35,885 nucleotides of DNA from a virus (Duplodnaviria; Caudoviricetes), in IMG/VR virus record IMGVR_UViG_3300043414_001406, positions 1 through 35,885 of that record. One strand, 5' to 3'. A program made the position numbers and the translations under genes. A model generated the notes under the pieces. It worked only from the letters and a program-made list of their open reading frames with translations, made no database searches and was not told where the DNA came from. Shown here piece by piece: positions 3,116-22,726 of the stretch. Every line of letters begins with the position of its first letter. Within the stretch, counting starts at the first letter, position 1.

Positions 3116-3191
3116 AATATAATTCTTCCTGTGTGTAATCGCGGAGTGAAATAGGGACTAAGATTATAGATCCCCTGTTTTTCAGTGTAGC

Positions 3192-3374
3192 TTAGACCTG
3201 ATTATCCTTCTTCACCTTTGCAGGCTTCTCAGGCTTTGCAGGCACCACTTCGCGATACCCTTCGGACAGATTGTGACCAATCTGCTTGAACTTGCTGGTT
3301 GTAGCCTTCGGAGCCACAGTGAGGCCCTTGATCAACTTGCCAGCAAACTTGCCAGTACTCTTTGAAACTTCCAT
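3192..3374 (-). CDS. Small basic hypothetical protein
   Basis: Lys-rich 60-aa ORF with GGAAGGT RBS. Confidence 0.65.
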   Translation of the reverse strand: MEVSKSTGKFAGKLIKGLTVAPKATTSKFKQIGHNLSEGYREVVPAKPEKPAKVKKDNQV

Positions 3375-3428
3375 TGTTACTTACCTTCCTGATTGTTGAT
3401 AATTGTAATAAGAACCGATTTCATCGAT

Positions 3429-3626
3429 TCACCTTTCATGCTGGTCAAGACCGTATTTCACGATCCCCAGTTTTTCACGGTAAACTTCCACGATGCTCTG
3501 AGCCTGTTTGTAATTGGTGCAGGGCAAGTGAAATACAATCGTGTCGCTTTCGCCCCCAGTTGGACTGGCGAAGTTGAACACAACTGAATCATCTTGTGCA
3601 AATACAGCACTGATACTACCTCTCAT
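3429..3626 (-). CDS. Hypothetical protein
   Basis: 65-aa ORF with AAAGGA RBS, directly downstream of a TCTAAATTTTTCTAATAG motif. Confidence 0.7.
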   Translation of the reverse strand: MRGSISAVFAQDDSVVFNFASPTGGESDTIVFHLPCTNYKQAQSIVEVYREKLGIVKYGLDQHER

Positions 3627-3664
3627 TATTTCCTTTCTTGGGTTCTATTAGAAAAATTTAGAGG

Positions 3665-3694
3665 TGAGCAGTTTATAGCACATGCTCAGGTGCT
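3665..3694 (-). ncRNA. H-type pseudoknot motif, copy 1
   Basis: Minus strand AGCAC-C-TGAGCA-T-GTGCT-ATAAAC-TGCTCA. Confidence 0.65.
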
Positions 3695-3699
3695 GTGAA

Positions 3700-3984
3700 T
3701 CAGTTGCTCTTGGCCAACTGTTCGGTGACACGCTTGTATGAGAGATGGGTCCGACGAACCCAACCATACTTGCGTTCAAATGCTTCCAGCTCGTAGTCCG
3801 GAAGATTCTTGTACAGCTTCATATCGTGACCGAAAATGAAGCCACGGAATGCGTCAGCTGACTTGGTAGGAAGCTTGAGTCCATCTTCCTCAACTTTGAC
3901 ACATTCATTGTTGATTTTGTTCTCCAACAGAATTTGCTTGTTGAGCAGATCGTAGAAGCGAGCGGAATGCCGTTCGCGGGCCAT
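3700..3984 (-). CDS. Hypothetical protein (MARERHSARF...)
   Basis: Start moved from 4035 to the ATG at 3984, which follows the RBS GAAAGAGGT; the upstream extension overlaps pseudoknot copy 2. Confidence 0.7.
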   Translation of the reverse strand: MARERHSARFYDLLNKQILLENKINNECVKVEEDGLKLPTKSADAFRGFIFGHDMKLYKNLPDYELEAFERKYGWVRRTHLSYKRVTEQLAKSN

Positions 3985-4017
3985 AATACCTCTTTCATGA
4001 CTATCGAAATGGGTGAA

Positions 4018-4044
4018 TGAGCAGTTTAGACACATACTCAGGTG
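4018..4044 (-). ncRNA. H-type pseudoknot motif, copy 2
   Basis: Minus strand CAC-C-TGAGTA-T-GTG-TCTAAAC-TGCTCA; the U-G wobble works only on the minus strand. Confidence 0.6.
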
Positions 4045-4052
4045 CTTGGAGG

Positions 4053-4196
4053 CTACTGGTCGAGACTCAGCAAGGCTTGCTCCAAGGCCCAGTGCTGACG
4101 TGCAGCTTTTAGCGTTTCACGGCTTGTTGCTGCGGTGCGGATGATTGCGAGCAGATTGGTAGCTTGCTCCGTGAGGTTCCTCTCACGAGTGTCCAT
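4053..4196 (-). CDS. Small hypothetical protein, 47 aa (not in ORF track)
   Basis: AGGAGGT RBS then MDTRERNLTEQATNLLAIIRTAATSRETLKAARQHWALEQALLSLDQ*. Confidence 0.7.
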   Translation of the reverse strand: MDTRERNLTEQATNLLAIIRTAATSRETLKAARQHWALEQALLSLDQ

Positions 4197-4734
4197 GAAT
4201 ACCTCCTATGGTAGGGCATGGTCCCCTGTTTTTCTCCGTAGAGATCTATTCCCGGGCGCTCAACCCCAGCAGAGGCAGTTACCAACTCTGCATACTGGGG
4301 GAGCAACGCCGGGGAGGCTGTGGACAGATTTAACGACATATCCAGGTCTTAATGCATATTTTGTATGCAATGTCAACATGCTTAGATGTTGAACAGGAGA
4401 AAGGGCCAGTTGATAATCAATCTTACTAATCCTCGGGACTGGCTGCTCCGAATCCTTACATTCACCTGCACCATGATGAGTGGTGGGCGGTGCCTTTGCG
4501 GGTTATTCGCGCCTAGGTATCGCGCTAGTACATTGGGCTGATCAACCCTGGCATATAGGCCTTCGGTCTATGTACGTAACCTTAGTGTGAACTATAGTGC
4601 TTTGATCTTATTGTTGCCACACTGACAATAAGATTTCTTATCATACTAGTTGCAACTAGCATGAAGTGCATACCTCCCTAGCAAAGTAGGGAACGCACTA
4701 GGCTTAAATTCTGTTTATAGTCGCCTAGTCGACT

Positions 4735-4986
4735 TCAGTTCGTCTTCAGGAAGTTTTCAATTTCCCTGAGACCGATTATGGTTGTTTGTTCGATGGTCAA
4801 GTTTTCTTTGGCGAAATCGAGCAGCATCAGAGCGAAGGTGCTGACCATCAGCTTTTCGAAGTCAGTTGCTTCGGTTTCATTTTCTTCGAACTGTCCATTC
4901 CACATGGCCAAGACCGAACCGATGATGATTGCGAAATCGGCAGGGATTGGCGCGCTGAACACTGGGATGTTGTTGATGTCGTTCAT
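4735..4986 (-). CDS. Hypothetical protein
   Basis: 83-aa ORF with GAGGAGG RBS. Confidence 0.75.
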   Translation of the reverse strand: MNDINNIPVFSAPIPADFAIIIGSVLAMWNGQFEENETEATDFEKLMVSTFALMLLDFAKENLTIEQTTIIGLREIENFLKTN

Positions 4987-5236
4987 GATAGAAGAGGCCT
5001 CCTCACCCCTGTTTTTCTATCTTGGAGTTCTATTATAAAAATTTAGAACACTGGTGCCCGCAACTCACAATTATCGGCTCGGTTACACCAATGTTCGATT
5101 CAGTTAGGGTATTTTTGGCCCGAGGAAACTGACATCCTTCAAAAGGTGGGGAATGATTCCCCTGTTTTTCTGCATGCATAGGTGCTATTGCAAAAAAAAG
5201 TTTAGAGTCTAGGCTCTATTGAAAAAAATTGGTACA

Positions 5237-5278
5237 CCAGCCAGCCGGATCCCCTTGTGAGGGGGACCCGACTGCTGG
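5237..5278 (-). terminator. GC-rich hairpin after the SSB-like gene
   Basis: CCAGC-CAG-CCGG-ATCCCC...GGGGGACCCG-ACTG-CTGG, followed on the minus strand by a T-run. Confidence 0.6.
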
Positions 5279-5286
5279 CGAGTGGA

Positions 5287-5682
5287 CTACAGGTCCTCTT
5301 CGTCGAAGGGACCTGCGGTGGCCGCGGTGGCCTGCTTGGCGCGGTAGGCGTCAGCATACGCTTTCGCCTGGTCGGAGAACACGACCGTGACCGGCTCCAT
5401 GACCGGCTGGTCCGGCGGCATGACCTCGATGTTACCGCCGAGGAAGAGCTGCTGCTTGGGGACCTTCAACGGGATGACTTCGTTGTTGCGGTCGGTGTAG
5501 GTCTCTTCGACCTTACCCGTGCCGACCTGGGTCACGTTCAGACGCATGCCCGGCACAAGCTGGGCGGCGATGTCGTTGGGCAACCAAGCCCAAGGGCGAA
5601 CACCGTCGTTCTTGACGAACGAGACAACCGTCGACCTCGGGCCGGAACCCCCAATAGCAGCGATGGACAGGACAGTGCTCAT
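5287..5682 (-). CDS. Putative ssDNA-binding (OB-fold-like) protein
   Basis: Beta-rich N-terminal part, Ala/Thr linker, acidic-aromatic tail PFDEEDL; GGAGGT RBS. Function is inferred. Confidence 0.45.
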   Translation of the reverse strand: MSTVLSIAAIGGSGPRSTVVSFVKNDGVRPWAWLPNDIAAQLVPGMRLNVTQVGTGKVEETYTDRNNEVIPLKVPKQQLFLGGNIEVMPPDQPVMEPVTVVFSDQAKAYADAYRAKQATAATAGPFDEEDL

Positions 5683-5729
5683 AATAAACCTCCACGTTTA
5701 GAGCACGAAAGGAACGGCAGAATTACCGT

Positions 5730-5815
5730 CCCCAGTTTTTCTCCCGAAAGAGAACAGGGATAACTCCCCTGTTTTTCTCCCCGAAAAGAACAGAGTGATA
5801 ACACCCCTGTTTTTC
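5730..5815. repeat. Three tandem ~37-bp units containing CCCCTGTTTTTC
   Basis: Cores at 5730, 5766 and 5804; unit CCCC[AT]GTTTTTCTCCC(C)GAAA(G)AGAACAG..GATAAC. Confidence 0.85.
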
Positions 5816-5986
5816 TTCGGTAAAGAAAACTTTAGAATTACCACCAATCTAGAACCTATGGCAACCCCGCTTACAAATTTAGAATTAGGATTCTATCAAT
5901 ATAAAACTTTTAATTATATGACTAAGGTTCTATCTGTATTGAAAAGACTATTACCCAGAATTAGTCTTTTCAACATGTGAGGGCAA

Positions 5987-6045: not shown

Positions 6046-8877
6046 TCAGTCGTAGTCCAAAGACTGAGCGAAGCGCATCAGCTCTTCGAACTCATCGTCT
6101 TCGATCTCATCCAACTGGTGGATGACGACTTCCTCGTCGGGGTCTTCGATCTGCGGAATGAGCGGGATGTGCTCTTCCGGAGATTCAAACCCCCAACCTC
6201 GCTGGTGTAGTACGGGGATCAGCATGTCCATGATGGACACGCCGTCACCCTGCTGGAAGACCAGACGGTCATAGCGACCGAGAGGCTTCGTGGAGATGCC
6301 GTGGGCGTTCGGCTTCTCGGGTGTTAGCACGTAGTGCCAGACCGCTAGGGCACGCTGACCGGGCTTGTCAAACCCGTTGAGTTCTGCAACGGCATCGTTG
6401 ATGACGCTGCGGATCTCCGCATGCTTGGATCGCTGCAGGGTAATCTTCTTGAGACCACTGCTGTTGGCGATCACGCCCTTGTACTTGCCGTCCACATTGG
6501 ACAGCTTCGTACTGTAGCGCAGGTAGAACTCGCTTGCCCACGACATGCCCTTGTCGAAGTTGAGCGACTTCACCCACTGCACCACCGGCTGCTGGGAGCG
6601 CATCTGCAGAGTCTTCATCTCCACATTAGCCCAGATCTCCTTGATGGCATCACGATATGCCTCTTGGAAACTGGACAGCTCACCGTCCACAGCGAACTCG
6701 GCAGCCTTCTTCCTGTGCTTACCGGAGAACCGGTTCACAAGATAGCTGTCGACCTGTCCGTTCGTGCACTTCAGTGCAAGCAGTGTCGTTTCCGACGTGG
6801 CTTGTGCTGCAGCGGAGATCTCGTTGAAGATCTTCGGATCGGACAGCTGTTGCGCCCCGTCGACCAACTGTTCGAACGGAACAGTCAGCGACGGAGGCAT
6901 GGACGGCCCCATGGCACCAGCCCAGGCCATGATGGCGTTGGCAACACCACCAATACCTGGGTTCCACTGCTGGGCCAGGATCTGACGCAGAGCATCAGCC
7001 TTGGTCCAGGTAGTGCGGGAGTACGTCAGTGAACCCTGGATGGAGTTCACTTCGATACCCTTCATCTCCTCACCCTGCGGCAATGGCAATGTCGCCAGGT
7101 CGATGACCTCAGCATTGTCGAGGTCCAGGAACTGCCAGGGCAGATCCAGGATGTCATCGATCTCCAGGAAGGAGAATTCTCCGACACCGTTCGGTGACCT
7201 CAACGCCGATGCCACCCACTTGGCTTCGCTGGCCGTGGTGGGAATCATCTCCTTGGGGGAGATGACACCGTTCTCGGCCATCATCGCGGTTACGGTGGGA
7301 TCCGATGACCAGATCCGGCAGAGTTGCAGTTCCACCGAGTCATCGAAATCTGCGCCACCGAGCAGGCCGTAGATCTCCTCGAAACGGTCGTCGGGGATGA
7401 CGATACCGATACCGGGAGCATACCATGCCCTGTTGCCACGATGGTGGGTCTTGTAGTTGCCAACCTTCGTCAGCGAGCCGTGGCTCACGATGAGCATCAC
7501 AGTCGCATTCGACTTCGGCAAATACATGGCTTTGGCGTAGCCCTTGGCCTCGCCATTGTAGTAGCCACCGTCGAACCACTTTGCCATGCGGTTCGCACTG
7601 CCCCCCATCGCCATACGCAGCATGTTCTGAGCTGAACGGATGTCCAACCCAGCTTTCTGCCAGCGCATGATGGCGTTGGCTTCACCCTTGTAGGCCTCGC
7701 GTTCTTCGCCGAGACCTTCTTCGGTGTGGGCTTCGTTGCCCATGAGCAGCCAATCCGGCAGTTCGCCAGACTGGATGGCCTCCATGATCTTGGAGACATA
7801 GGTCTTCAGATCACGGTTCCGGTGGTGATGGGTGAGAATCTGCGGATTCATCACCAACCGCTGGACATCCCATGTCGCCTCGTGAACCGGGTGGTGTTCT
7901 GAGGCGGTGAACATCATGAACTGATCCGTTGGACGGATCTCGCTCTTGATGTTCTCGGGAACGGTGACGATATCATAGCCGTCCATGAACTTGTCAGGAC
8001 GGACGATCATGTCACCCTTGATGAGGCAGCCCATGGGAGCCAGGGCCACCTTGCCTGCCGGAATGAGCAAGCGCGCATTGAAACGCTTGATCTTCCCAGC
8101 TGCGATGAGGTACCGCTGCTTGCGGCGCTCTTCATCGCTAGGGATGAGTTCCGTGGCCTTGAGCATGAAGCTCTTGGACACGTAACTCATGCCATCGCGG
8201 CTGACAGCAGAAAGATCCCTCGGCTGACGGACCTTGATCCGAACAGCTTCGATCTCCTTAGTGTCGTCAGTGTACCAGGCCAGCTTGCTGGTACGAACGA
8301 GCTCATTTGCTCGCTTGGACGACTTCGGGGCATCGATCATCTCGATACCCATTGGTTGCAGCCCCCAACCTTCATGGTCGGGGAACTGGAGGAAGAACGA
8401 GGTTGATGCATTGGCCCAGGCGAACTGGACCTTATCAACCTTCTCCTTCCAGGTGGCGAAGAACTGCTTCTTCTCCATCTCGGTGGCGTTGGCGTCGAAA
8501 TTGATGACGCCATTCTTCACCACGGTGAGACGGAAACGAATGTTCTTCTCTTCCAGCCGTTTCATCAGTAGATACGGCTGCCAATCAGCACCATCGATGG
8601 CCATGAGACCATCGACTGGCATGGCGTCCTTGACGGAAACCATGTACCGATCCTTCTCGGATTGGATGGGATCATTGGTTATGATCCGCACCTCCCCGAA
8701 AACCGGATGCGACTTGAGAAAGGAGATTGTCCTCCCTCTTGGCGTGACCTTGGACTCGGCAACGATCGCTTCCTTCTTCAGGAAGTGAGCCTTGCCATTG
8801 ATCACCACATAGTGGCGACCGTCCTTGGCCACCTTCGTCTGGCTCAGAAGCCAGAAGAAGATGCTGTACGCGAACAT
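6046..8877 (-). CDS. Putative single-subunit two-barrel (DPBB) DNA-dependent RNA polymerase, YonO/eukaryotic-RdRP-like
   Basis: Ordered motifs RDGMSYVS, FNAR...IKGDM...ENIK, GIVIP...LGGADFDD and LRSPN; the size fits; start set at the ATG at 8877 behind GGAGGT. Confidence 0.7.
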   Translation of the reverse strand: MFAYSIFFWLLSQTKVAKDGRHYVVINGKAHFLKKEAIVAESKVTPRGRTISFLKSHPVFGEVRIITNDPIQSEKDRYMVSVKDAMPVDGLMAIDGADWQPYLLMKRLEEKNIRFRLTVVKNGVINFDANATEMEKKQFFATWKEKVDKVQFAWANASTSFFLQFPDHEGWGLQPMGIEMIDAPKSSKRANELVRTSKLAWYTDDTKEIEAVRIKVRQPRDLSAVSRDGMSYVSKSFMLKATELIPSDEERRKQRYLIAAGKIKRFNARLLIPAGKVALAPMGCLIKGDMIVRPDKFMDGYDIVTVPENIKSEIRPTDQFMMFTASEHHPVHEATWDVQRLVMNPQILTHHHRNRDLKTYVSKIMEAIQSGELPDWLLMGNEAHTEEGLGEEREAYKGEANAIMRWQKAGLDIRSAQNMLRMAMGGSANRMAKWFDGGYYNGEAKGYAKAMYLPKSNATVMLIVSHGSLTKVGNYKTHHRGNRAWYAPGIGIVIPDDRFEEIYGLLGGADFDDSVELQLCRIWSSDPTVTAMMAENGVISPKEMIPTTASEAKWVASALRSPNGVGEFSFLEIDDILDLPWQFLDLDNAEVIDLATLPLPQGEEMKGIEVNSIQGSLTYSRTTWTKADALRQILAQQWNPGIGGVANAIMAWAGAMGPSMPPSLTVPFEQLVDGAQQLSDPKIFNEISAAAQATSETTLLALKCTNGQVDSYLVNRFSGKHRKKAAEFAVDGELSSFQEAYRDAIKEIWANVEMKTLQMRSQQPVVQWVKSLNFDKGMSWASEFYLRYSTKLSNVDGKYKGVIANSSGLKKITLQRSKHAEIRSVINDAVAELNGFDKPGQRALAVWHYVLTPEKPNAHGISTKPLGRYDRLVFQQGDGVSIMDMLIPVLHQRGWGFESPEEHIPLIPQIEDPDEEVVIHQLDEIEDDEFEELMRFAQSLDYD

Positions 8878-9004: not shown

Positions 9005-9018
9005 CTATCCATAAAAAA
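9005..9018 (-). promoter_or_regulatory. TTTTATGGATAG motif upstream of the polymerase-like gene
   Basis: ctatccataaaa at 9005; variant TTTTACAGATAG at 9039-9050. Confidence 0.7.
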
Positions 9019-9057
9019 CTAATTTAATAATTAGAGTTCTATCTGTAAAAGGGGGAG

Positions 9058-9085
9058 TGAGCAGTTTCGCGACATGCTCAGGTCG
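9058..9085 (-). ncRNA. H-type pseudoknot motif, copy 3
   Basis: Minus strand CGAC-C-TGAGCA-T-GTCG-CGAAAC-TGCTCA; P1 covaries with copy 1. Confidence 0.65.
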
Positions 9086-9092
9086 ATGGGTG

Positions 9093-9359
9093 TTACTTGC
9101 GGTGCTGCGGGCAGCGGGACTGACCGCTCACCTCGGTGATGGTGCCGGTCCACCGGTGGGTGGAGCGGGACCACTTTCCGTTTTCCTGCGCCCAGGTGAC
9201 GCAGTTGACGGTGACCATCCGATCGATGATCATGGTCTTGGTCTTGGTATCATCAGACACTTTGACCATTTTCCCAGTAAGGCTGTTTTGCTTGGCGTAC
9301 GTGATCGCCTCAAGAAGATTAGCAGCCTCAAAGATCGTATTGCCGATCTTGTATTTCAT
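9093..9359 (-). CDS. Hypothetical protein
   Basis: 88 aa, GGAGG RBS. Confidence 0.8.
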   Translation of the reverse strand: MKYKIGNTIFEAANLLEAITYAKQNSLTGKMVKVSDDTKTKTMIIDRMVTVNCVTWAQENGKWSRSTHRWTGTITEVSGQSRCPQHRK

Positions 9360-9407
9360 GGTGTCCTCCAGACACTGGATAGCAGCCTCAGGTTTAAGGC
9401 TAGGGAT

Positions 9408-9460
9408 CTATCCATAAAAGAGTTCCCCCAGGACCGAAGTCCCAGGGGAATTACTCTTTT
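9408..9460 (-). promoter_or_regulatory. Hairpin + TTTTATGGATAG element
   Basis: Minus strand AAAAGAGTAATTCCCCTGGGAC-TTCG-GTCCTGGGGGAACTCTTTT-ATGGATAG. Confidence 0.8.
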
Positions 9461-9698
9461 ACCCCTGACAGCCGCAGGGGTCATTTGGCTTTTCGGCGTT
9501 GTATCCAGCCGAGATCAATGCCTTGATCTCTGCTAGAGTGAGCCGAAAAGCCAGCTGTTCTGGAGCGGTCGGTTTTGGCCTGTTGGCCTGACGCAACCGC
9601 CCCTGGACATGAAAGTTGCCGTGGTTAGGGCAACCGTCACGTCCGACTGTTCTCTGGCACGGATTGCCAGAGGTGGTGTTGGTTGATAGACATTTCAT
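9459..9698 (-). CDS. Small Cys/His putative Zn-binding protein
   Basis: KCLSTNTTSGNPCQRTVGRDGCPNHG (C-C-C-H); AAGGAGGTGA RBS. Confidence 0.8.
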   Translation of the reverse strand: MKCLSTNTTSGNPCQRTVGRDGCPNHGNFHVQGRLRQANRPKPTAPEQLAFRLTLAEIKALISAGYNAEKPNDPCGCQG

Positions 9699-9726
9699 TG
9701 TTCACCTCCTTTAAGTGACTAAATCT

Positions 9727-9780
9727 CTATCATTAAAAGAGTTTCCCCGAAGACTGAAATCCCCGGGGAATAACTCTTTT
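9727..9780 (-). promoter_or_regulatory. Hairpin + TTTTAATGATAG element
   Basis: AAAAGAGTT-TCCCCG...CGGGGA-ATAACTCTTTT adjacent to the motif variant. Confidence 0.8.
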
Positions 9781-9843
9781 ACCGTTTCTGTTCCCAAGCT
9801 ACGGTAGCTCGGCCCCACATGTCGGGAGCCAGGTGGCCATCTA

Positions 9844-9999
9844 TCACGCGACGTAGTAGTGGTAGAAGTCTGATGTCATCTTGACACCAAGCTTCCTCAC
9901 TCGCTTGGTCACGCGACGGCACTGCCTGTGACTGAGGGCCTGATTTGTATCAGGATCAATCAACGACATGGCAGCTCGGGCCGCATGGAAATTGGACAT
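9844..9999 (-). CDS. Small basic hypothetical protein (MSNFHAARAA...)
   Basis: ATG at 9999 behind AAGGAGGTGA. Confidence 0.75.
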   Translation of the reverse strand: MSNFHAARAAMSLIDPDTNQALSHRQCRRVTKRVRKLGVKMTSDFYHYYVA

Positions 10000-10027
10000 T
10001 TTCACCTCCTTTCTAAAGGCTAGAGAT

Positions 10028-10073
10028 CTATCCATAAAAGAGTTACCCCTTAGTTGCCCAAGGGATAACTCTT
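10028..10073 (-). promoter_or_regulatory. Hairpin + TTTTATGGATAG element
   Basis: AAGAGTTA-CCCCTT...AAGGGA-TAACTCTT next to ctatccataaaa. Confidence 0.8.
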
Positions 10074-10127
10074 CTTATTTATGTCAGCACTTAGTGTAGG
10101 GACATGTGCCAGACCCTTGTCCTCCTG

Positions 10128-10361
10128 CTAGGGGAGGAGGATTATTGCACCCACAGGAATTGATCCTGCGGGATAGGTGTTGACCTCCATGAGACGAAAT
10201 ACCGCCTCCTGAGGGTTGGTACAATGGCCAGCTGCGATGCTGGAGTAGGTGTCACCCGACTGGGCAACAACCTGTGGTGCATCGCACACCACCTCAGTAT
10301 TGTGCTTGCACGCGGCAAACACAAAGCCAAACAATGCCATAATGGCGAGGAAATACCTCAT
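10128..10361 (-). CDS. Small LysM-domain lipoprotein
   Basis: Signal peptide with lipobox-like FAAC, then VVAQSGDTYSSIA...LMEVN...IPVGAIILLP (LysM consensus). Confidence 0.75.
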   Translation of the reverse strand: MRYFLAIMALFGFVFAACKHNTEVVCDAPQVVAQSGDTYSSIAAGHCTNPQEAVFRLMEVNTYPAGSIPVGAIILLP

Positions 10362-10400
10362 ATTACTTGTCCTCCTTGTGGACTAATAGACCCCAATGGT

Positions 10401-10457
10401 CTATCCATAAAAGGGTTTCCCCTCACTACACTGGATGTGTAGCAAGGGGAGTCCCTT
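10401..10457 (-). promoter_or_regulatory. Hairpin + TTTTATGGATAG element
   Basis: AAGGG..TCCCCT-CACTACAC-TGGAT-GTGTAG-CA-AGGGGA..CCCTT. Confidence 0.8.
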
Positions 10458-10612
10458 CAGTCCTGAAGAAGGTTGTATGCCTCCTGGAGGAGGCTCTGGG
10501 CCTCCAGGATCTGATACGACAGGTCGCCCTGTCGCACTTTGAGTAGGGCTTGTTGAGCCCTACTCATTGTTGAGATGGCCTGCGAGATCTCGTGGAGCAG
10601 GTCCTCATTCAT
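10457..10612 (-). CDS. Small helical hypothetical protein (MNEDLLHE...)
   Basis: ATG at 10612 behind GGAGGTG; the longer track ORF reads through the regulatory element. Confidence 0.75.
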   Translation of the reverse strand: MNEDLLHEISQAISTMSRAQQALLKVRQGDLSYQILEAQSLLQEAYNLLQD

Positions 10613-10664
10613 GACAATGCACCTCCAGTGCATGGATAGCGGTCTCAGGTTTGAGACCAGGAAA

Positions 10665-10720
10665 CTATCCATAAAAGGGGTTGCCCCCACTACACTGGAT
10701 GTGTAGCAGGGGCTGCCTTT
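10665..10720 (-). promoter_or_regulatory. Hairpin + TTTTATGGATAG element
   Basis: Shares the 21-mer CACTACACTGGATGTGTAGCA with the 10401 element. Confidence 0.8.
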
Positions 10721-10721
10721 G

Positions 10722-11168
10722 TTAGACGAAGTCGCCACCTTCGTCATCTTCCTCCTCTTCTGGAGGAGGAGAGAAGATCGCCATCAAGGCGAGGATCGGA
10801 AAACCGATCTCCTCACCCCCAATGGCGTCTTCTGCCAGTGGCCACGGCGGTGTTACCTCCGTAGCCATCTGGTGCTCCACCCCCCACCAGGAGGGAGTAA
10901 CCTCCATTGACAGGAGGTCATCCGCGAAGATGCGGATCTTACCTCCTGTCAGCAGAAGCTCTTCCACCTCCTTCCTGGAGTAGGGGTAGATGACCTGTCC
11001 CCACTCCGAGGGAAGGTCGGCGGCGATTACCACCTTCCCTTCCGGAAGGTAGCTGCTCGTCACCTTTTGCCCCCACAACAGGATGGAGGCAACGTCTTCA
11101 CCTTCCCAGGTGATGACGACCTCCTTCTTGCTATGGTTGTCGAAGATGGTTGTCTGGCTGTTGTTCAT
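10722..11168 (-). CDS. Acidic hypothetical protein
   Basis: ATG at 11168 behind GGAGGT; acidic tail EEEEDDEGGDFV. Confidence 0.8.
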   Translation of the reverse strand: MNNSQTTIFDNHSKKEVVITWEGEDVASILLWGQKVTSSYLPEGKVVIAADLPSEWGQVIYPYSRKEVEELLLTGGKIRIFADDLLSMEVTPSWWGVEHQMATEVTPPWPLAEDAIGGEEIGFPILALMAIFSPPPEEEEDDEGGDFV

Positions 11169-11233
11169 GACTACCTCCAGTAGCATGATTGATGCGCACA
11201 GCGTTGTTGCTGTACGACTAGATGGCCATAGGC

Positions 11234-11295
11234 CTATCCATAAAAAAGGTACCCCTTCCCAGAATCCGAAGATCCTAGGAAGGGGTATTCTTTTT
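11234..11295 (-). promoter_or_regulatory. Hairpin + TTTTATGGATAG element
   Basis: AAAAAAG-GTACCCCTTCC...GGAAGGGGTAT-TCTTTTT with a cUUCGg loop on the minus strand. Confidence 0.8.
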
Positions 11296-11297
11296 AC

Positions 11298-12212
11298 TCA
11301 GTTGCAGATCACCTGCTGCAGCCCAGCGATATCGCCAGGCAGGTACTTACCATACGAGTAATCGCTCTCGTATGACATGATGCTCTGGACCTGCTCGCCC
11401 TCTGCATCATGGGTGTGATCCAGGCCCATGAGGTGACCCATCTCATGCAGGATAATGTGGGTATGGTTAGCCCAGTCATCCTGCACAGACGGATCCACTG
11501 CAAGGGTGGCATCCTGGATATGCAGAGACACACCGAGGAAGGTACTGCTACCTGCGACATTTATCTGCATTTCTGCTACATGTAGTTCGGGCAAATCCCG
11601 CTCAACAACAGGAACCACCCAATCCGTTTCAGTGGGGACATAGCTGCTGTCCACTACCTGTACACCCATGTGGGTATACTGGTTGAACAGGGCAATGTCG
11701 CCCATGAAATCATCATACTTGGAATCCATAGGGAGATTCCACTGCATGACGACATGGTTGTCCACCATGGTTTCCCACGGGATCTCAACCATGCTACCAT
11801 CCTCCATGGGGAACATGGTAGCAGTGTATTCACTGCTGTTGGTGTACGTATCGCACACGTACTCAGCAGTAACGGGTGCCACCGTGGTAGTTGTTTCTTC
11901 TACCATAGCAGCGGTGACTTCTGCTACAGTAGTGGTGCTTTCTTCCACCATGGTAGTAGTAGTCTCCTCCACCATGGTGGTGATGGTGGGGAGGACGTTG
12001 CTGGTAGCAGCGGTGTCATTGCTGCTAAGGACAATGGTGGCACCAATGATGCCAACAATGATGATCGCCATAGCAATCACGGTCATGACGATACGGTTCC
12101 ACATGGGAACCATAACTGCCCTGTAGTCGTTGGTATAGATCGGTTCATATGTGAACGGATCCATGCCGATTTGACGGCGGGCGATGACCTTGTATTCCTT
12201 CTTGAAGAACAT
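11298..12212 (-). CDS. Membrane-anchored metzincin zinc metalloprotease (matrixin-like)
   Basis: TM helix IVMTVIAMAIIIVGIIGATIVL, Thr/Glu-rich linker, HEMGHLMGLDH (HExxHxxGxxH) and Met-turn SIMSY; ATG at 12212 behind AAAGGA. Confidence 0.85.
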   Translation of the reverse strand: MFFKKEYKVIARRQIGMDPFTYEPIYTNDYRAVMVPMWNRIVMTVIAMAIIIVGIIGATIVLSSNDTAATSNVLPTITTMVEETTTTMVEESTTTVAEVTAAMVEETTTTVAPVTAEYVCDTYTNSSEYTATMFPMEDGSMVEIPWETMVDNHVVMQWNLPMDSKYDDFMGDIALFNQYTHMGVQVVDSSYVPTETDWVVPVVERDLPELHVAEMQINVAGSSTFLGVSLHIQDATLAVDPSVQDDWANHTHIILHEMGHLMGLDHTHDAEGEQVQSIMSYESDYSYGKYLPGDIAGLQQVICN

Positions 12213-12484
12213 TGTTATTCCTTTGATACGCGCGTAAGCGTGGGTTGGTTGATAATGAGTGACAAGTGCTGAACACCAAAGCCCCATACCCGGGTGGGCA
12301 TGTTAAAGGTTAGGAGCGCAACATATACTCACTATTACCGGCTTGTATTTTTTTCTGGTTTTTTCCCTTATATGGCTTTTATATGTTTATACATGTTGTT
12401 GTTCTTTTTTTATTCTTTTATTATTTTTTTTTTATATGTTTATATGGCCCGCTTGTTTTTTTCTTTTTTTTGTTCTTGGTTGTC

Positions 12485-12514
12485 TTGATTTTTCTTTTTT
12501 GTTCTGTGTATGAT
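12485..12514 (+). promoter_or_regulatory. Possible sigma70-type promoter
   Basis: TTGATT-18 nt-TATGAT, with TGTG immediately before the -10 box. Confidence 0.4.
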
Positions 12515-12564
12515 CTGTGAACCGGGCGAATTTGGTCGCCGGGAATAAACAACGTTAGGATGCC

Positions 12565-12774
12565 GTGGTGAATACTTTTGTAGATTGTCCGTCGTGTGGT
12601 TCTGAGTTCATCGTTGATGAAGAGATTATGTCTTCCAATCTTCGATGCCCTGATTGCTTACAGTGGGTATCTAGCTATAGTGACGATAATGATCGTTTGT
12701 TTGTGTCTGCATATGCGGTCCGCTTTGATGATCATTTTGAAGACTATGGTTATGAGTCAGGGTATGATTACTGA
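12565..12774 (+). CDS. Zn-ribbon protein with acidic tail
   Basis: CPSC...CPDC. Confidence 0.7.
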   Translation: MVNTFVDCPSCGSEFIVDEEIMSSNLRCPDCLQWVSSYSDDNDRLFVSAYAVRFDDHFEDYGYESGYDY

Positions 12775-19141: not shown

Positions 19142-22100
19142 ATGAGAGTCAATCGGGGTCAATCTAACCGAGAGTCAATGTTACGCTCTTTTGAAGGTAT
19201 AGCTAGAGTTGTTTCTTCTGATCCTAATCAGGTCGCAACTACAGGTTCATTTTTTCAGCAAGCTCCGATGGGAAAACTTTCTGATTATGAAGAAGTTTTT
19301 GGTACGGCTGATGAATTTCTTGAAAGGTATAAACTTTTCCAGGAAGAGTATCACGCAGCACTAGATGTCCGCTTAGATCACTTCAAGACAAATAGAATTG
19401 TTGCAGAAATGACAAAGAAGCGTCAAAAAATAGACTTGGGGTTTTTAGCACAAGATGCGTCTAGTGATTTGACAATGTACTTTAAAGATAAAGTGATGAG
19501 ATATAATAGTCTATTTAATAGGCAGGGACTTCCAGGTGTAGAGTTACCTAGCTCTAACTTGTATAGATCTTCTCATCTTTTCGAAGTTGATAATAGTCAG
19601 GGTATTGTTCATCCAGCGCAAATTGTTTTAAACGACGGAAGTTTCAACTTTAATCCAGAAAAAAAGGGATTAGAAAGTGTATCTACTGGTACATCAATGC
19701 CAAGCTTTGAAGCAATACAAAGAATGTGGGATAATTATTCTTCAGTTCCAGCAAATACTGCCAATAGGCTGATTAAGCAGATAGATCCATTTAAAGATGT
19801 TTTAGAGGGGCAGAAGATGTTGACAGTTGACGTTGAAACAACTGGACTTTTTAATAATGCTCAGGTGAGATCTTTTGCTGCCGCAGAAATGCGGGTAGAA
19901 AATGGTGTCCTCTCTGCTCCAGAAACAATACTAAATGCGGGCTTTAGATCTGAACAGCTTAATGGAATTAACGTTCCTGCACTAAATGGTGCAACTCAAG
20001 ATTTGAATTCATTCATAATGCAGATGGAGAACTCTGCTGGAAGAACTGTTTCAGATATGGGTACTGGTGGAGAAAAGTTTTTAGAAGAGTTCAATAAGCT
20101 AGCTGAAAGAATGCTGAGTGCTGATCGGGTGGCTGGTCACAATATTGGTTTCGACTTAGATATGCTAGCCCGTACAGCAATGGCTCAGAATGGGTTTAGT
20201 ACTTATAAAACTGGGGGGTTCACTGCTGCAGAAAGATTAGCGCAGATAGATGATAAAATTGCTGGCGGAAACTACCTTGTTGATACTTTACATTCGACTA
20301 GAATCTTTTTAAGGGATCAAGCACAGCAGGCTGTTGAAAAATCAGTTCCGTTAGATAAAAGATCTGCAGAGTTTGTTAAAAAACTTCTTCCGAGTGAGGT
20401 ATCTACAAATATTAGACTTGGCGGGTCTGCAAAGTTTGCTGGTGTTGGCGAATTTGTAATGAATACTAATTTTTTTGAATTATTAGAAAACGATAACCCC
20501 CAGCATGCAGAGAGAATATTTGAGTTAATAACTCAAGGATCACACATAGCCGAAACAGATATTCATCTTCAATCCTATATTGGAAAGTTTCTTCATGAAA
20601 AGGCGGAAACTGGTCAACTTAAAATTAAAGCGCTTGCCGAAAAGGAAGGTCAAGTTTTTTCTGAATTTGGCGAGTATGCAAGAATGAGGATTTTAAAATC
20701 TCAAGCTATTACTCCAACTACAAATATTGCTAGTGTCAAACATATGAGTCAGACGACTTTTGATTACCTTCAAAGAGATGAAGGATTAAAAAATATTTCA
20801 ATGCGAGTAGATATCAGCACTGCAAGATCTCAGCTTGGTATTACAAATACAGCAGAGGAAATGATTGGAACAGAGCGAGCTAGAACAATTTTGGCTATGA
20901 ATCCAAGAGCAGATTTACAACGGGAAATGGGAACTTTGTCTCGTGTCGATGGCAAATTTGCTTTTGTGACAGCTGAAGGGGCATATGAGGTTCAGAATCA
21001 GGATTCGGCAAAATCGTTTATTCGTACTAAGTTAAACGAAGCTAAATCTCTAGACACTAATGATTCTTTGAGAGTTGCAGGTAAGTCTCTTAATCTTACG
21101 AGGAATATTGCCGACGATGCATTCTTAGATTTTGGAATGAACTTTTTAACTCAATCTCAAAGCGAAGATTTAATTAATATTGGAAGTATTAATGTTTCAG
21201 GAAATCCTGGAATATCTGAAATAAATACTGCCCTAGGTAATACTTATGAAAGGTTTGGAACAGGTTTTTCAATAAATGATCAAATTAGAACTATTTTTAG
21301 AGCCAATACTCCCACTAGTCCTTACTCTAGGGGCTTTAAAGGCTACACTCCTGTTGAGTTTGCTCAAGTTGGAAAATCAATGGCACAGGATTTTGCCAGT
21401 ATTGGTGATCCTTATGCAAGATTTATAGATCCAAGATCTAGGATTGTTTCTTCACTTCTGGCAGAAAGCACTGCAGGTATAGCCGAAGGGGCTGGCATGG
21501 CAGCGATGGAAGTTAATAAAGCAGCACTAGCAGCAGGGGATCCAGCAAAGATCGGTCTTGATAAAATATCCCATTTAAGTATGTCAAGGCCTTTGTCTGA
21601 ACTTGGAGTTTCCCATTTCAGATCACAAGACGCCCTAAGAGTATTTGATATCGGTTCTGTGGACAAAGTCGCATCTTCTAGAATATTAGTTCAGCCAGAA
21701 ATAATTAAAGATATTTTGGCTAGGAAGTCGACTCAAGCTGGATCTAGTTTAGCTGGACTTCAAATGAGAGTTGGATTATCCAGGGCAAACATGGGTGAAC
21801 AGGGAATAAGAATTAATGCCGTATGGAACATTGGGGAAGAGGCAGGAGATAATGCTGCTAGAGAAATGGCAGAATCATTATTTGATGTTTTTACAAGTGG
21901 TGAAGATAACGTTGCCAAAATATTGAATGTTGGTAGAGATGAATTGGGGTCAGATGTTATTCGGGAACTTTCTCAGGCGCAGATGCTTAATCAAACTGAA
22001 AGAGCCACAACTATAGATAATCTAACTACCTTTATTAAGGAACGCGGGATTGGTGTTGGCTATATTGATAAAAAAGATGCAGTTATGGCTGATAAGGCTT

Positions 22101-22726
22101 TGAATGATGTTTTTGTAACTTTAGATAATGATGTGCTCTCGGATGCTAGAATGTACGAAGAAACAATTGATTATTCAAGTGATCTCAAGTATGGTGAGAG
22201 GGTTTTAGCTTTTGGTCCAGTACATAACCCTAAAGCCATTGAGTCGGCTGGACTTAGTGCAGAATTTGAGGCGGCGCGAAGGATAAATCCAGGAGAAACT
22301 GTATCTCCGTTAATCACGGCACAGAAGAGAGTGGCTTCTGTGATTGATTCAGAAGGTGCGGGCAATAGCATTATTCGTCGGATTTCTAGTAAGAAATCTG
22401 GTTTGGCAGAAGGTGCCGGTAGAGCATTCTATAATGCAAATAAGACTAAGATCGGTTTTGCTGCGTTAGGTGCGGCAGCTGTTGGCGCTAGTTACTATCT
22501 ATATAAGAAACATAAAGAGACTGCTTTATACGAGGAGACTTTAGCTCAACAGCCAACTGAACGTGGCACTGGTATGGATAGAACTATGCAAGCTCCACTA
22601 GCTTCTAGGAAGCCAAATTTCTCTGATCCATTAGCAACAGCTGGTGTAGTAGGTAATCTTGATAGATTGAAAATTGGTCATACTCAAATGGGAAATAACA
22701 AAAATAATCATTTATTTGGGATGTAA
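19142..22726 (+). CDS. Large protein with a DEDDh (DnaQ-like) 3'-5' exonuclease domain and C-terminal hydrophobic helix
   Basis: LTVDVETTGL (ExoI), VAGHNIGFDL (ExoII), SHIAETD (ExoIII); IGFAALGAAAVGASYYLY. Confidence 0.8.
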   Translation: MRVNRGQSNRESMLRSFEGIARVVSSDPNQVATTGSFFQQAPMGKLSDYEEVFGTADEFLERYKLFQEEYHAALDVRLDHFKTNRIVAEMTKKRQKIDLGFLAQDASSDLTMYFKDKVMRYNSLFNRQGLPGVELPSSNLYRSSHLFEVDNSQGIVHPAQIVLNDGSFNFNPEKKGLESVSTGTSMPSFEAIQRMWDNYSSVPANTANRLIKQIDPFKDVLEGQKMLTVDVETTGLFNNAQVRSFAAAEMRVENGVLSAPETILNAGFRSEQLNGINVPALNGATQDLNSFIMQMENSAGRTVSDMGTGGEKFLEEFNKLAERMLSADRVAGHNIGFDLDMLARTAMAQNGFSTYKTGGFTAAERLAQIDDKIAGGNYLVDTLHSTRIFLRDQAQQAVEKSVPLDKRSAEFVKKLLPSEVSTNIRLGGSAKFAGVGEFVMNTNFFELLENDNPQHAERIFELITQGSHIAETDIHLQSYIGKFLHEKAETGQLKIKALAEKEGQVFSEFGEYARMRILKSQAITPTTNIASVKHMSQTTFDYLQRDEGLKNISMRVDISTARSQLGITNTAEEMIGTERARTILAMNPRADLQREMGTLSRVDGKFAFVTAEGAYEVQNQDSAKSFIRTKLNEAKSLDTNDSLRVAGKSLNLTRNIADDAFLDFGMNFLTQSQSEDLINIGSINVSGNPGISEINTALGNTYERFGTGFSINDQIRTIFRANTPTSPYSRGFKGYTPVEFAQVGKSMAQDFASIGDPYARFIDPRSRIVSSLLAESTAGIAEGAGMAAMEVNKAALAAGDPAKIGLDKISHLSMSRPLSELGVSHFRSQDALRVFDIGSVDKVASSRILVQPEIIKDILARKSTQAGSSLAGLQMRVGLSRANMGEQGIRINAVWNIGEEAGDNAAREMAESLFDVFTSGEDNVAKILNVGRDELGSDVIRELSQAQMLNQTERATTIDNLTTFIKERGIGVGYIDKKDAVMADKALNDVFVTLDNDVLSDARMYEETIDYSSDLKYGERVLAFGPVHNPKAIESAGLSAEFEAARRINPGETVSPLITAQKRVASVIDSEGAGNSIIRRISSKKSGLAEGAGRAFYNANKTKIGFAALGAAAVGASYYLYKKHKETALYEETLAQQPTERGTGMDRTMQAPLASRKPNFSDPLATAGVVGNLDRLKIGHTQMGNNKNNHLFGM

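Follow-up and report, generated by a model that had tools for sequence, protein, structure and literature searches.

A putative stop-and-restart element arrayed ahead of single genes and a two-barrel RNA polymerase gene in a large phage family

How are transcripts ended and begun again in a row of single genes that stands beside a phage's own RNA polymerase gene, and which enzyme reads the signals between them? The question is raised by positions 9005-11295 of a 35,885-nt stretch of Caudoviricetes DNA (IMG/VR record IMGVR_UViG_3300043414_001406), called the window below. The window is an entire 35.9-kb virus record with an estimated completeness of 17%. It carries an array of small genes next to the gene of polymerase A, and stops short of the genes of two paralogues, polymerases B and C. 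In the array a short motif recurs, mostly fused to a long hairpin. We see about an even chance that this element acts as a stop-and-restart cassette whose reader is a phage polymerase, the predicted virion-packaged polymerase C being likelier than the adjacent polymerase A. In our best reading the cassettes are terminator-promoter units like the promoter(early) stem-loops (PeSLs) of T4-type phages.

The initial annotation listed six exact copies of TTTTATGGATAG on the minus strand, at 9005, 9408, 10028, 10401, 10665 and 11234, and variants at 9039 and 9727. All were found again, the variants with two mismatches each. The plus strand of the window had no exact TTTTATGGATAG copy, and 200 order-3 Markov copies of the window contained 0.03 exact copies on average and one at most. 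With up to two mismatches there were 19 matches in the window against 5.1 expected. At least one copy stood ahead of each of seven consecutive genes including the polymerase gene, as had been claimed, and each of these genes (10722-11168, 10457-10612, 10128-10361, 9844-9999, 9459-9698, 9093-9359 and the polymerase gene, 6046-8877) had a Shine-Dalgarno-like word. The fusion of six copies to long hairpins, two of them with a cUUCGg loop (at 11234 and 9408), was also correctly described; these hairpins have 18-23 pairs and energies of -25.5 to -32.5 kcal/mol.

All parts of the array lie on the minus strand. Element 1 (11234-11295) joins a 23-pair hairpin with a cUUCGg loop (11243-11295) to an exact motif (11234-11245). 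Element 2 (10634-10720) has an 18-pair hairpin (10674-10720), an exact motif (10665-10676) and a downstream stem (10634-10670), in which the motif hexamer is paired with its complement around an inner 7-bp hairpin. Element 3 (10386-10458) consists of a 20-pair hairpin (10410-10458), an exact motif (10401-10412) and a 7-bp downstream stem that begins inside the motif. Element 4 (10028-10075) has an 18-pair hairpin (10036-10075) and an exact motif (10028-10039), and element 5 (9727-9780) a 20-pair hairpin (9735-9780) and a two-mismatch motif (9727-9738). In element 6 (9377-9460) a 19-pair hairpin (9416-9460) with a cUUCGg loop is followed by an exact motif (9408-9419) and a downstream stem (9377-9413) enclosing an inner 7-bp hairpin. 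The polymerase gene is preceded by two motif copies 34 bp apart and without such a hairpin (9005-9050): copy 7 (9039-9050, two mismatches) follows a small H-type pseudoknot repeat (9059-9084) in the hairpin's place, and copy 8 (9005-9016) is exact. A degenerate copy (5893-5904) lies 3' of the polymerase gene, where relatives have full elements.

The element was present in 22 of 27 family loci oriented on polymerase A, always on the same strand as the polymerase. There were 196 pattern hits, which became 171 after filtering and 170 distinct copies after deduplication. Its form is Y-tract-AT-GnnTAG-N5/6-RR; more fully, with +1 at the G after TTTAT, it shows a G-run, a pyrimidine tract (-12 to -3), AT or GA, GnnTAG, five or six free bases, two purines and two pyrimidines. 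The middle letters differ by phage (GGG, GGA, GAC, GCC, GTA). The conserved purines 6-7 nt past TAG were absent from the initial annotation; positions +13/+14 were both purines in 159 of the 170 copies, paired or unpaired, and the search pattern, which fixes T at -5 to -3 and TA at +4/+5, leaves them free. In whole records the hairpin-fused form was limited to the array, with seven of 15 pattern hits in G039 (all seven at 50.5-55.7 kb) and two of six in G037. Rfam had no family for the element or for the pseudoknot repeat.

Co-occurrence of the motif with the polymerase in related phages, which had been proposed as a check, was supported by scans starting from the element. The first covered 63 contigs in the 80 of 96 loci retrieved with flanks, and 20 of the contigs had at least two hairpin-fused copies; in the second scan it was nine of 44. 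All 20 and all nine carried marker genes of the family. The polymerase itself was found in 17 of the 20 and eight of the nine, and the remaining contigs end before it. Five loci keep polymerase A without elements (G046, G048, G019, G049 and G041), and there the region runs as an operon. Ribozymes in place of the elements in such relatives were not supported by Rfam. In two relatives without the element (L107, L109) we observed repeated structured intergenic RNAs, which had no Rfam match at gathering score.

A hairpin and U-tract of this make have the look of intrinsic terminators. An upstream hairpin of -15 kcal/mol or better was computed for 144 of the 170 copies, so that the intergenic stem-loop of a PeSL, able to terminate and placed upstream of a start, is found in these copies by computation. 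The sense strand gave the more stable fold in 155 of 170. Sense-strand loops included 42 cUUCGg and 18 GNRA, against 0 and 1 on the opposite strand, and the 10-nt tract held 8-9 T in 118 of the 144 hairpin copies. The RNA-type loops and the G.U bias on the sense strand support, computationally, the claim that each hairpin ends the upstream transcript. Most family copies have the 8-9 T tract and therefore would stop transcription and need a restart.

The motif is present also where the hairpin is not. In 26 of 170 copies the hairpin is missing, often in tandem copies ahead of the polymerase gene, and the motif is therefore probably selected on its own. This agrees with the earlier proposal of a start signal independent of the hairpin, which stands as a candidate function. 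A second stem, also absent from the initial annotation, begins at the G and has the motif as its 5' arm. The fold with a copy's own middle letters ranked 3.5 of 16, against 6.7 in shuffles. With the register set from TAG and the inner bases only (129 of 144 copies anchored), pairing at +3, +2 and +1 was 0.55, 0.55 and 0.64 versus 0.38, 0.41 and 0.45 in the control, and positions -1 to -4 showed no excess over control. Since the second stem covaries with the motif and the sense strand is favoured (133 versus 36), the motif is probably transcribed.

The stem boundary at the G points to an RNA start at that G, and we take it as about an even chance that the RNA starts there, after TTTAT, and then opens with a protective stem. 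A start at the purines 6-7 nt past TAG is possible but the less favoured of the two; the hexamer would then lie at -12 to -7, and inner hairpins often begin at the conserved purines +12 to +14. As far as the accessible text of PMC7598289 goes, the phiKZ late consensus is TATG+1 and motifs of virion-polymerase promoters are centred near -12. The late promoter of phiKZ (T-3ATG+1) has a likeness here: the commonest form of the motif contains TATG, whose G marks the stem boundary; however, phiKZ uses a multisubunit non-virion enzyme for late genes, and a four-letter resemblance may be chance.

An N4-like hairpin promoter, one of the alternatives named earlier, was rejected. The promoter of the N4 virion RNA polymerase is a short template-strand hairpin with a conserved 3-nt loop and a start about 11 nt downstream. 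Here the stems favour the non-template strand and the loops vary, with spans of 4-38 nt, and an N4-like start, placed 11 nt beyond the second stem, would truncate the Shine-Dalgarno words, which begin at +21.

If the motif is transcribed, the element could also be a processing site. One long transcript from the conserved upstream site would be cut in the U-rich linker that separates the two stems by an RNase E/J-type enzyme, or within the long stem by an RNase III-type enzyme, leaving monocistronic RNAs with both ends protected. RNase III cuts in such a stem in the early region of T7, and the window likewise has imperfect stems of about 20 bp (18-23 pairs) between genes; many relatives have shorter ones. 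The second stem, lying immediately 3' of the U-tract and covarying with the letters of the motif, would suit such processing, as would the short U-tracts of the window, the tight operons that element-less relatives form in the same region, and the portability of the element across polymerase clades. A Pistol ribozyme downstream indicates that the phage cuts its own RNA. On the other hand, the 8-9 T in 118 of 144 family hairpins are terminator-like, and stem sequences and loops vary freely. The hairpin-less tandem copies (9039/9005) have no gene between them, and +13/+14 are conserved regardless of pairing (159 of 170), both of which are unusual for a nuclease site. We consider this explanation rather unlikely.

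Could the host RNA polymerase read the element? The initial annotation saw no sigma-70 -35/-10 pair, and this was confirmed: TANNNT occurs at a fixed offset in 36 of 170 copies at best, and there is no -35 column. A sigma-A -10 box and the SigF/SigB -35 spacing were looked for in the family copies and not found. The host enzyme could still act with an alternative sigma factor or a phage activator such as WhiB, and the elements would then be true PeSL analogues. GGGTAY is the -10 box of actinobacterial SigB/SigF promoters, and the commonest hexamer of the element presumably resembles it. A start at +12/+13 would put the hexamer at -12 to -7, WhiB is encoded in all five complete relatives tested, and near-identical cassettes stand beside A and C proteins that are only 21-25% identical. 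Against these points, no conserved -35 word lies at 14-17 nt and the junction of G-run and T-tract is only 9 nt upstream; the middle letters, conserved in SigF/SigB boxes, vary here; TANNNT is rare; no phage sigma factor was found in the complete relatives; and arrays are confined to the polymerase-encoding family. On balance host reading appears improbable.

The remaining candidates are the polymerases of the phage. That the neighbour of the array is a polymerase, as first annotated, was borne out by its fold. Polymerase A (6046-8877, 943 amino acids) had no sequence match in Pfam, PHROGs or the PDB. Its model, built from an alignment with 23 homologues, has pLDDT 84, and its Foldseek matches at E 0.001 or better were all RDR2, QDE-1 and gp64/gp62 of Thermus phage (TM 0.25-0.41), i.e., two-barrel polymerases. 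By this model polymerase A is a predicted single-chain RNA polymerase with two double-psi barrels in one chain. The catalytic loop GGADFDD has three invariant aspartates and is one spacer residue shorter than DxDxD, which is called invariant in such polymerases in the available part of PMC2919709. DxDxD was not found in the window or most paralogues, which have DxDD; one A clade has DxDGD. Also invariant in the A alignment are D229-G230, K288-G289, K312 and R561-x-P563. Judged by their order, the basic residues, the RxP motif and the second-barrel aspartate are probably equivalent to the canonical ones.

Polymerase A occurs with long N-terminal extensions, in open frames of 1400-2130 amino acids, in L104, L105, L106, L115 and L340, and three extended proteins from distant clades have a 210-amino-acid domain in common. 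Viral contigs scanned with the single sequences of polymerase A and a 337-amino-acid protein gave no match; with alignments, relatives were found. The polymerase profile matches at least 261 clusters at 50% identity. No relative of A was found in species genomes, and none of A, B or C in GenBank phages. Trees were made with FastTree, and two A groups carry a long-branch warning.

In the initial annotation the enzyme encoded beside the array was suggested as a possible reader of the motif, which would then amplify itself. Three observations would suit cognate promoters by which A amplifies its own gene and the array: two copies stand immediately ahead of the A gene and others follow it, co-occurrence with the family is strict, and a promoter candidate has been proposed for 0305phi8-36's own such polymerase. 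This suggestion was weakened by comparison among relatives. The same motif stands with A proteins about 21-22% identical: ATGGGTAG is found in both deepest A clades, and GAG(G/T)ATAG alongside A proteins 20-22% identical. Conversely, A proteins 70% identical have or lack the motif (G039 has seven elements, G046 and G048 none), and two further paralogues exist. In addition, the first transcript for a non-virion enzyme has to be made by another polymerase, no other promoter lies ahead of the gene, and in P23-45 the virion enzyme reads the gene of the non-virion enzyme. We regard reading by A as improbable, a shade more so than reading by the host enzyme.

Besides A at the array, the family has polymerase B (about 850 amino acids), 13-15 kb further, and polymerase C (about 1600 amino acids). 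In 12 loci inspected by eye, the regions upstream of the B genes showed no evident shared motif. C was found in 24 of 27 records and lies among the giant structural genes in all eight near-complete relatives. Its loop GGFD(L/F)DD is invariant, and it aligns with A over the DG, KxE, GGxDxDD and RxPxG motifs in order (E 8e-5). Records with C are G039 (191039-193855), G048, G012, G008 and others (L168-L187); in several records it is split into two or more open reading frames, twice just before or after the catalytic loop.

Polymerase C is our first candidate reader because an enzyme that is not in the virion depends on another for its first message, and because of the precedents in P23-45 and 0305phi8-36. 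In P23-45 an AT-rich motif before pre-early genes, including that of the second polymerase, was assigned to the virion RNA polymerase gp96 (bioRxiv 2022.12.01.518664, PMC10770324, available portion). In 0305phi8-36 the polymerase gene and monocistronic small open reading frames adjoin the terminal repeat, together with a 21-bp promoter candidate, according to the available text of PMC2147016. By analogy with this distant relative, the array would lie near the first-injected genome end. The hairpin and U-tract would end the upstream RNA, and injected polymerase C would start the next one. Host-takeover genes and polymerase A would thereby be expressed fast from monocistronic RNAs, A would then serve later genes, and the shared 30-60 bp would make a gene with its element a portable unit for homologous recombination. 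Arrays were found only in the polymerase-encoding family, and the set contained no member lacking C for comparison.

Several points weigh against a cassette read by C. The U-tracts of the window are among the weakest, with four T in five of six, and read-through is therefore likely there. The excess at the stem boundary is not evident in the window taken together with its closest relative only (13 copies), its significance is modest because the copies are related and not independent, and several motif columns were set by the search pattern. A single hairpin with the motif was also met in one (first scan) and five (second scan) unrelated contigs. As for the reader, packaging of C is predicted from the position of its gene only; its model has pLDDT 66 without a Foldseek match at E 0.001, and the one long structural match is to RDR2, a middling Z of 6.9 over 359 residues. 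Motif type does not track the C tree, and G007 and G013 have cassettes 84-93% identical with C proteins 25% identical; therefore the host polymerase or RNA processing fit too. G048 and G041 keep both C and A and lack elements.

Restart could also need no free-standing promoter. A polymerase would enter at the genome end, release its RNA at each U-tract while keeping its hold on the opened DNA, and restart at the next purine. In 144 of 170 copies the motif directly adjoins the U-tract, in keeping with such a relay, and the 5' end that we infer coincides with the end of the U-tract. Little sequence specificity would be needed, which fits the portability, and loss of an element would simply give an operon. 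But 26 of 170 copies have no hairpin, and plain promoter use explains the same facts, so we find a relay of this kind very unlikely. A broader proposal is speculative and we think it improbable as well: a widespread family of freshwater 200-kb actinophages would use a cascade of three paralogous, sigma-less single-chain polymerases with the shortened DxDD loop, and the injected enzyme would move along the DNA that enters first, releasing its RNA at every U-tract and beginning anew a few bases further. There no fresh promoter melting would be required, and the non-template strand folding on itself across the bubble would assist the restart. If it were true, a gene dropped between two elements would gain its own transcript whatever the polymerase allele.

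The elements mark where genes swap between phages. They had been suggested as recombination joints, and comparison of gene order among relatives supports this by block ends and by a chimeric element. Ends of shared blocks fell inside elements in 77 of 185 cases, versus 28.7 if uniform, a null that takes no account of elements lying at gene borders. In G029 and G031 three blocks are arranged differently, their ends lying between -18 and +12 of the motif. The chimeric element of L009 has the upstream half of L010's first element and the downstream half of its last, and about 1.2 kb is missing. Of the window's seven non-polymerase array genes, five recur as homologues elsewhere, each in 1-5 of 30 other arrays and at a different position. 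Could the elements be joints with ordinary terminators and nothing more, without a role in RNA start? Shuffling at elements is indeed directly visible. Their single-strand orientation and fixed place before the Shine-Dalgarno word speak against that account, under which genes behind strong terminators would be silent, and we find it hardly credible.

PeSL cassettes are described from the T4-type phages RB49/phi1, nt-1/KVP40 and PST/T4 in the available text of PMC2839356 and PMC4122927. As presented there, PeSLs likewise combine terminator and promoter in one repeat, stand before small variable genes of a hyperplastic region, and are sites of crossing over, through which chimeric elements arise and genes are gained, lost or reordered. 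They have sigma-70 -35/-10 boxes for the host polymerase with activity shown, whereas our element is without a sigma-70 consensus. Here, moreover, U-tract and start motif are fused and lead into a second stem, the copies stand in one array and the phages encode polymerases. The element, judged by its sequence, would work like a PeSL yet is not one, and its start function is predicted.

Phages with related polymerases offer further comparisons. Like this family, P23-45 has paralogous single-chain two-barrel polymerases in one phage, A matching its gp64 by fold, and a repeated AT-rich motif clustered before early small genes and the gene of the non-virion polymerase, as was found here. It differs in having two paralogues and not three; the loop here is mostly DxDD, not DxDxD, and C is a stand-alone gene of 1600 amino acids in which fusion to the tape measure is not apparent. 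P23-45 also has a 26-nt terminator motif, as far as the available text tells, and here termination would be by classical hairpins.

The distant relative 0305phi8-36 (232-amino-acid gene, 33% identity) shares a gene for an RNA-dependent RNA polymerase-like protein, gp99, and a phage-specific repeat. The repeat is unlike our element in sequence, a small hairpin and then a T-tract, and gp99 has DxDGD and no detectable similarity to A beyond the catalytic loop. We observed that its 21-bp promoter candidate is a small hairpin with a conserved loop and then a T-tract, in 10 copies near the polymerase gene (L343, 190000-218948). YonO of SPbeta and QDE-1/RDR2 share the fold and the order of catalytic motifs; they differ from polymerase A, for which sequence searches of Pfam, PHROGs, PDB and GenBank phages gave no match. 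The available part of PMC5467207 assigns YonO to late genes and leaves its promoter undetermined, and a jumbo-phage review (PMC7824862), in the text accessible, mentions just two YonO-like cases among phages of this size class.

By sequence comparison the window's phage is a member of a family of 200-216-kb WhiB-encoding phages. Domain and profile searches of the window identified RecA, a ClpB-like ATPase, terminase and tail-fibre genes among others. Family loci were collected with the neighbouring 232-amino-acid gene (80 of 145 matching loci retrieved), whose closest named relatives are Moorella phage MTATph1 and Bacillus phage 0305phi8-36. The polymerase profile matched 32 of 49 records searched, including all eight at least 90% complete, in two of which paralogue B alone matches. 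Sigma-70 region 2 and a beta-prime domain were absent from the five complete relatives tested. The host is likely an actinobacterium, because WhiB, found in all five, serves as an actinophage marker (bioRxiv 2023.05.30.542503, available portion). No description of the family, the element or three polymerase paralogues with a DxDD loop was found in the literature covered, whose scope excluded subscription journals and supplements; the supplement of the P23-45 paper (23 polymerase families), outside that scope, may include relatives.

The array genes themselves, all on the minus strand, vary among relatives. The first (11298-12212), which ends at element 1, encodes a membrane-anchored zinc metallopeptidase-like protein (M12/M10 families below or near cut-off), with a homologue in one of 30 arrays. 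It is followed by genes for 148 amino acids (10722-11168; function unassigned, homologues in two of 30), 51 amino acids (10457-10612; unassigned, none of 30), a LysM-like lipoprotein of 77 amino acids (10128-10361; LysM E 0.004, under cut-off, five of 30), 51 amino acids (9844-9999; unassigned, none of 30), a Cys/His-rich protein of 79 amino acids (9459-9698; two of 30) and 88 amino acids (9093-9359; unassigned, one of 30, where a look-alike element heads it). At the upstream end of the array a conserved site (12286-12305), which may be a genome-end or entry site, matched a strict pattern in 24 of 43 loci and is kept also in relatives without elements. An A-rich, G-poor tract, then this site, heads the array (12286-12560, minus strand), with or without elements in relatives, and is a candidate genome end, packaging site or entry promoter.

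Some features were observed downstream of the polymerase gene, all on the minus strand. The Pistol ribozyme (4668-4734; 65.5 bits, gathering 34.5) begins at the stop codon of an 83-amino-acid gene, and relative L106 has one at a similar place (12710-12772). The H-type pseudoknot repeat follows stop codons at 4019-4044 and 3666-3692, as it does at 9059-9084 ahead of the polymerase gene. Among 13 distinct copies across loci, stem 1 was paired in 13 and stem 2 in 12, both with compensatory changes; the repeat may be a 3'-end protector or an RNA motif outside Rfam. The word GAAAAACWGGG has eight copies on one strand at 3170-5820, some inside genes. It was also found in L010 (five) and L011 (four), was absent from ten other loci checked, and is a candidate second promoter class, for polymerase A, or a set of origin repeats. 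A 75-amino-acid gene (441-668), conserved downstream of the polymerase in relatives, is one that we take to be HicA-like by motif; it had no Pfam match. On the plus strand, a protein of 1194 amino acids with a 3'-5' exonuclease-like domain (19142-22726) immediately precedes the terminase module.

Little is known of how the single-chain two-barrel polymerases of phages, relatives of the RNAi enzymes, locate their start sites, and the promoters of P23-45 were assigned only recently. The 170 natural variants of a candidate promoter and three candidate enzymes would be testable at the bench with synthetic genes. For this phage family, the arrays would mean a gene shuffling of PeSL type built on a signal other than sigma-70.

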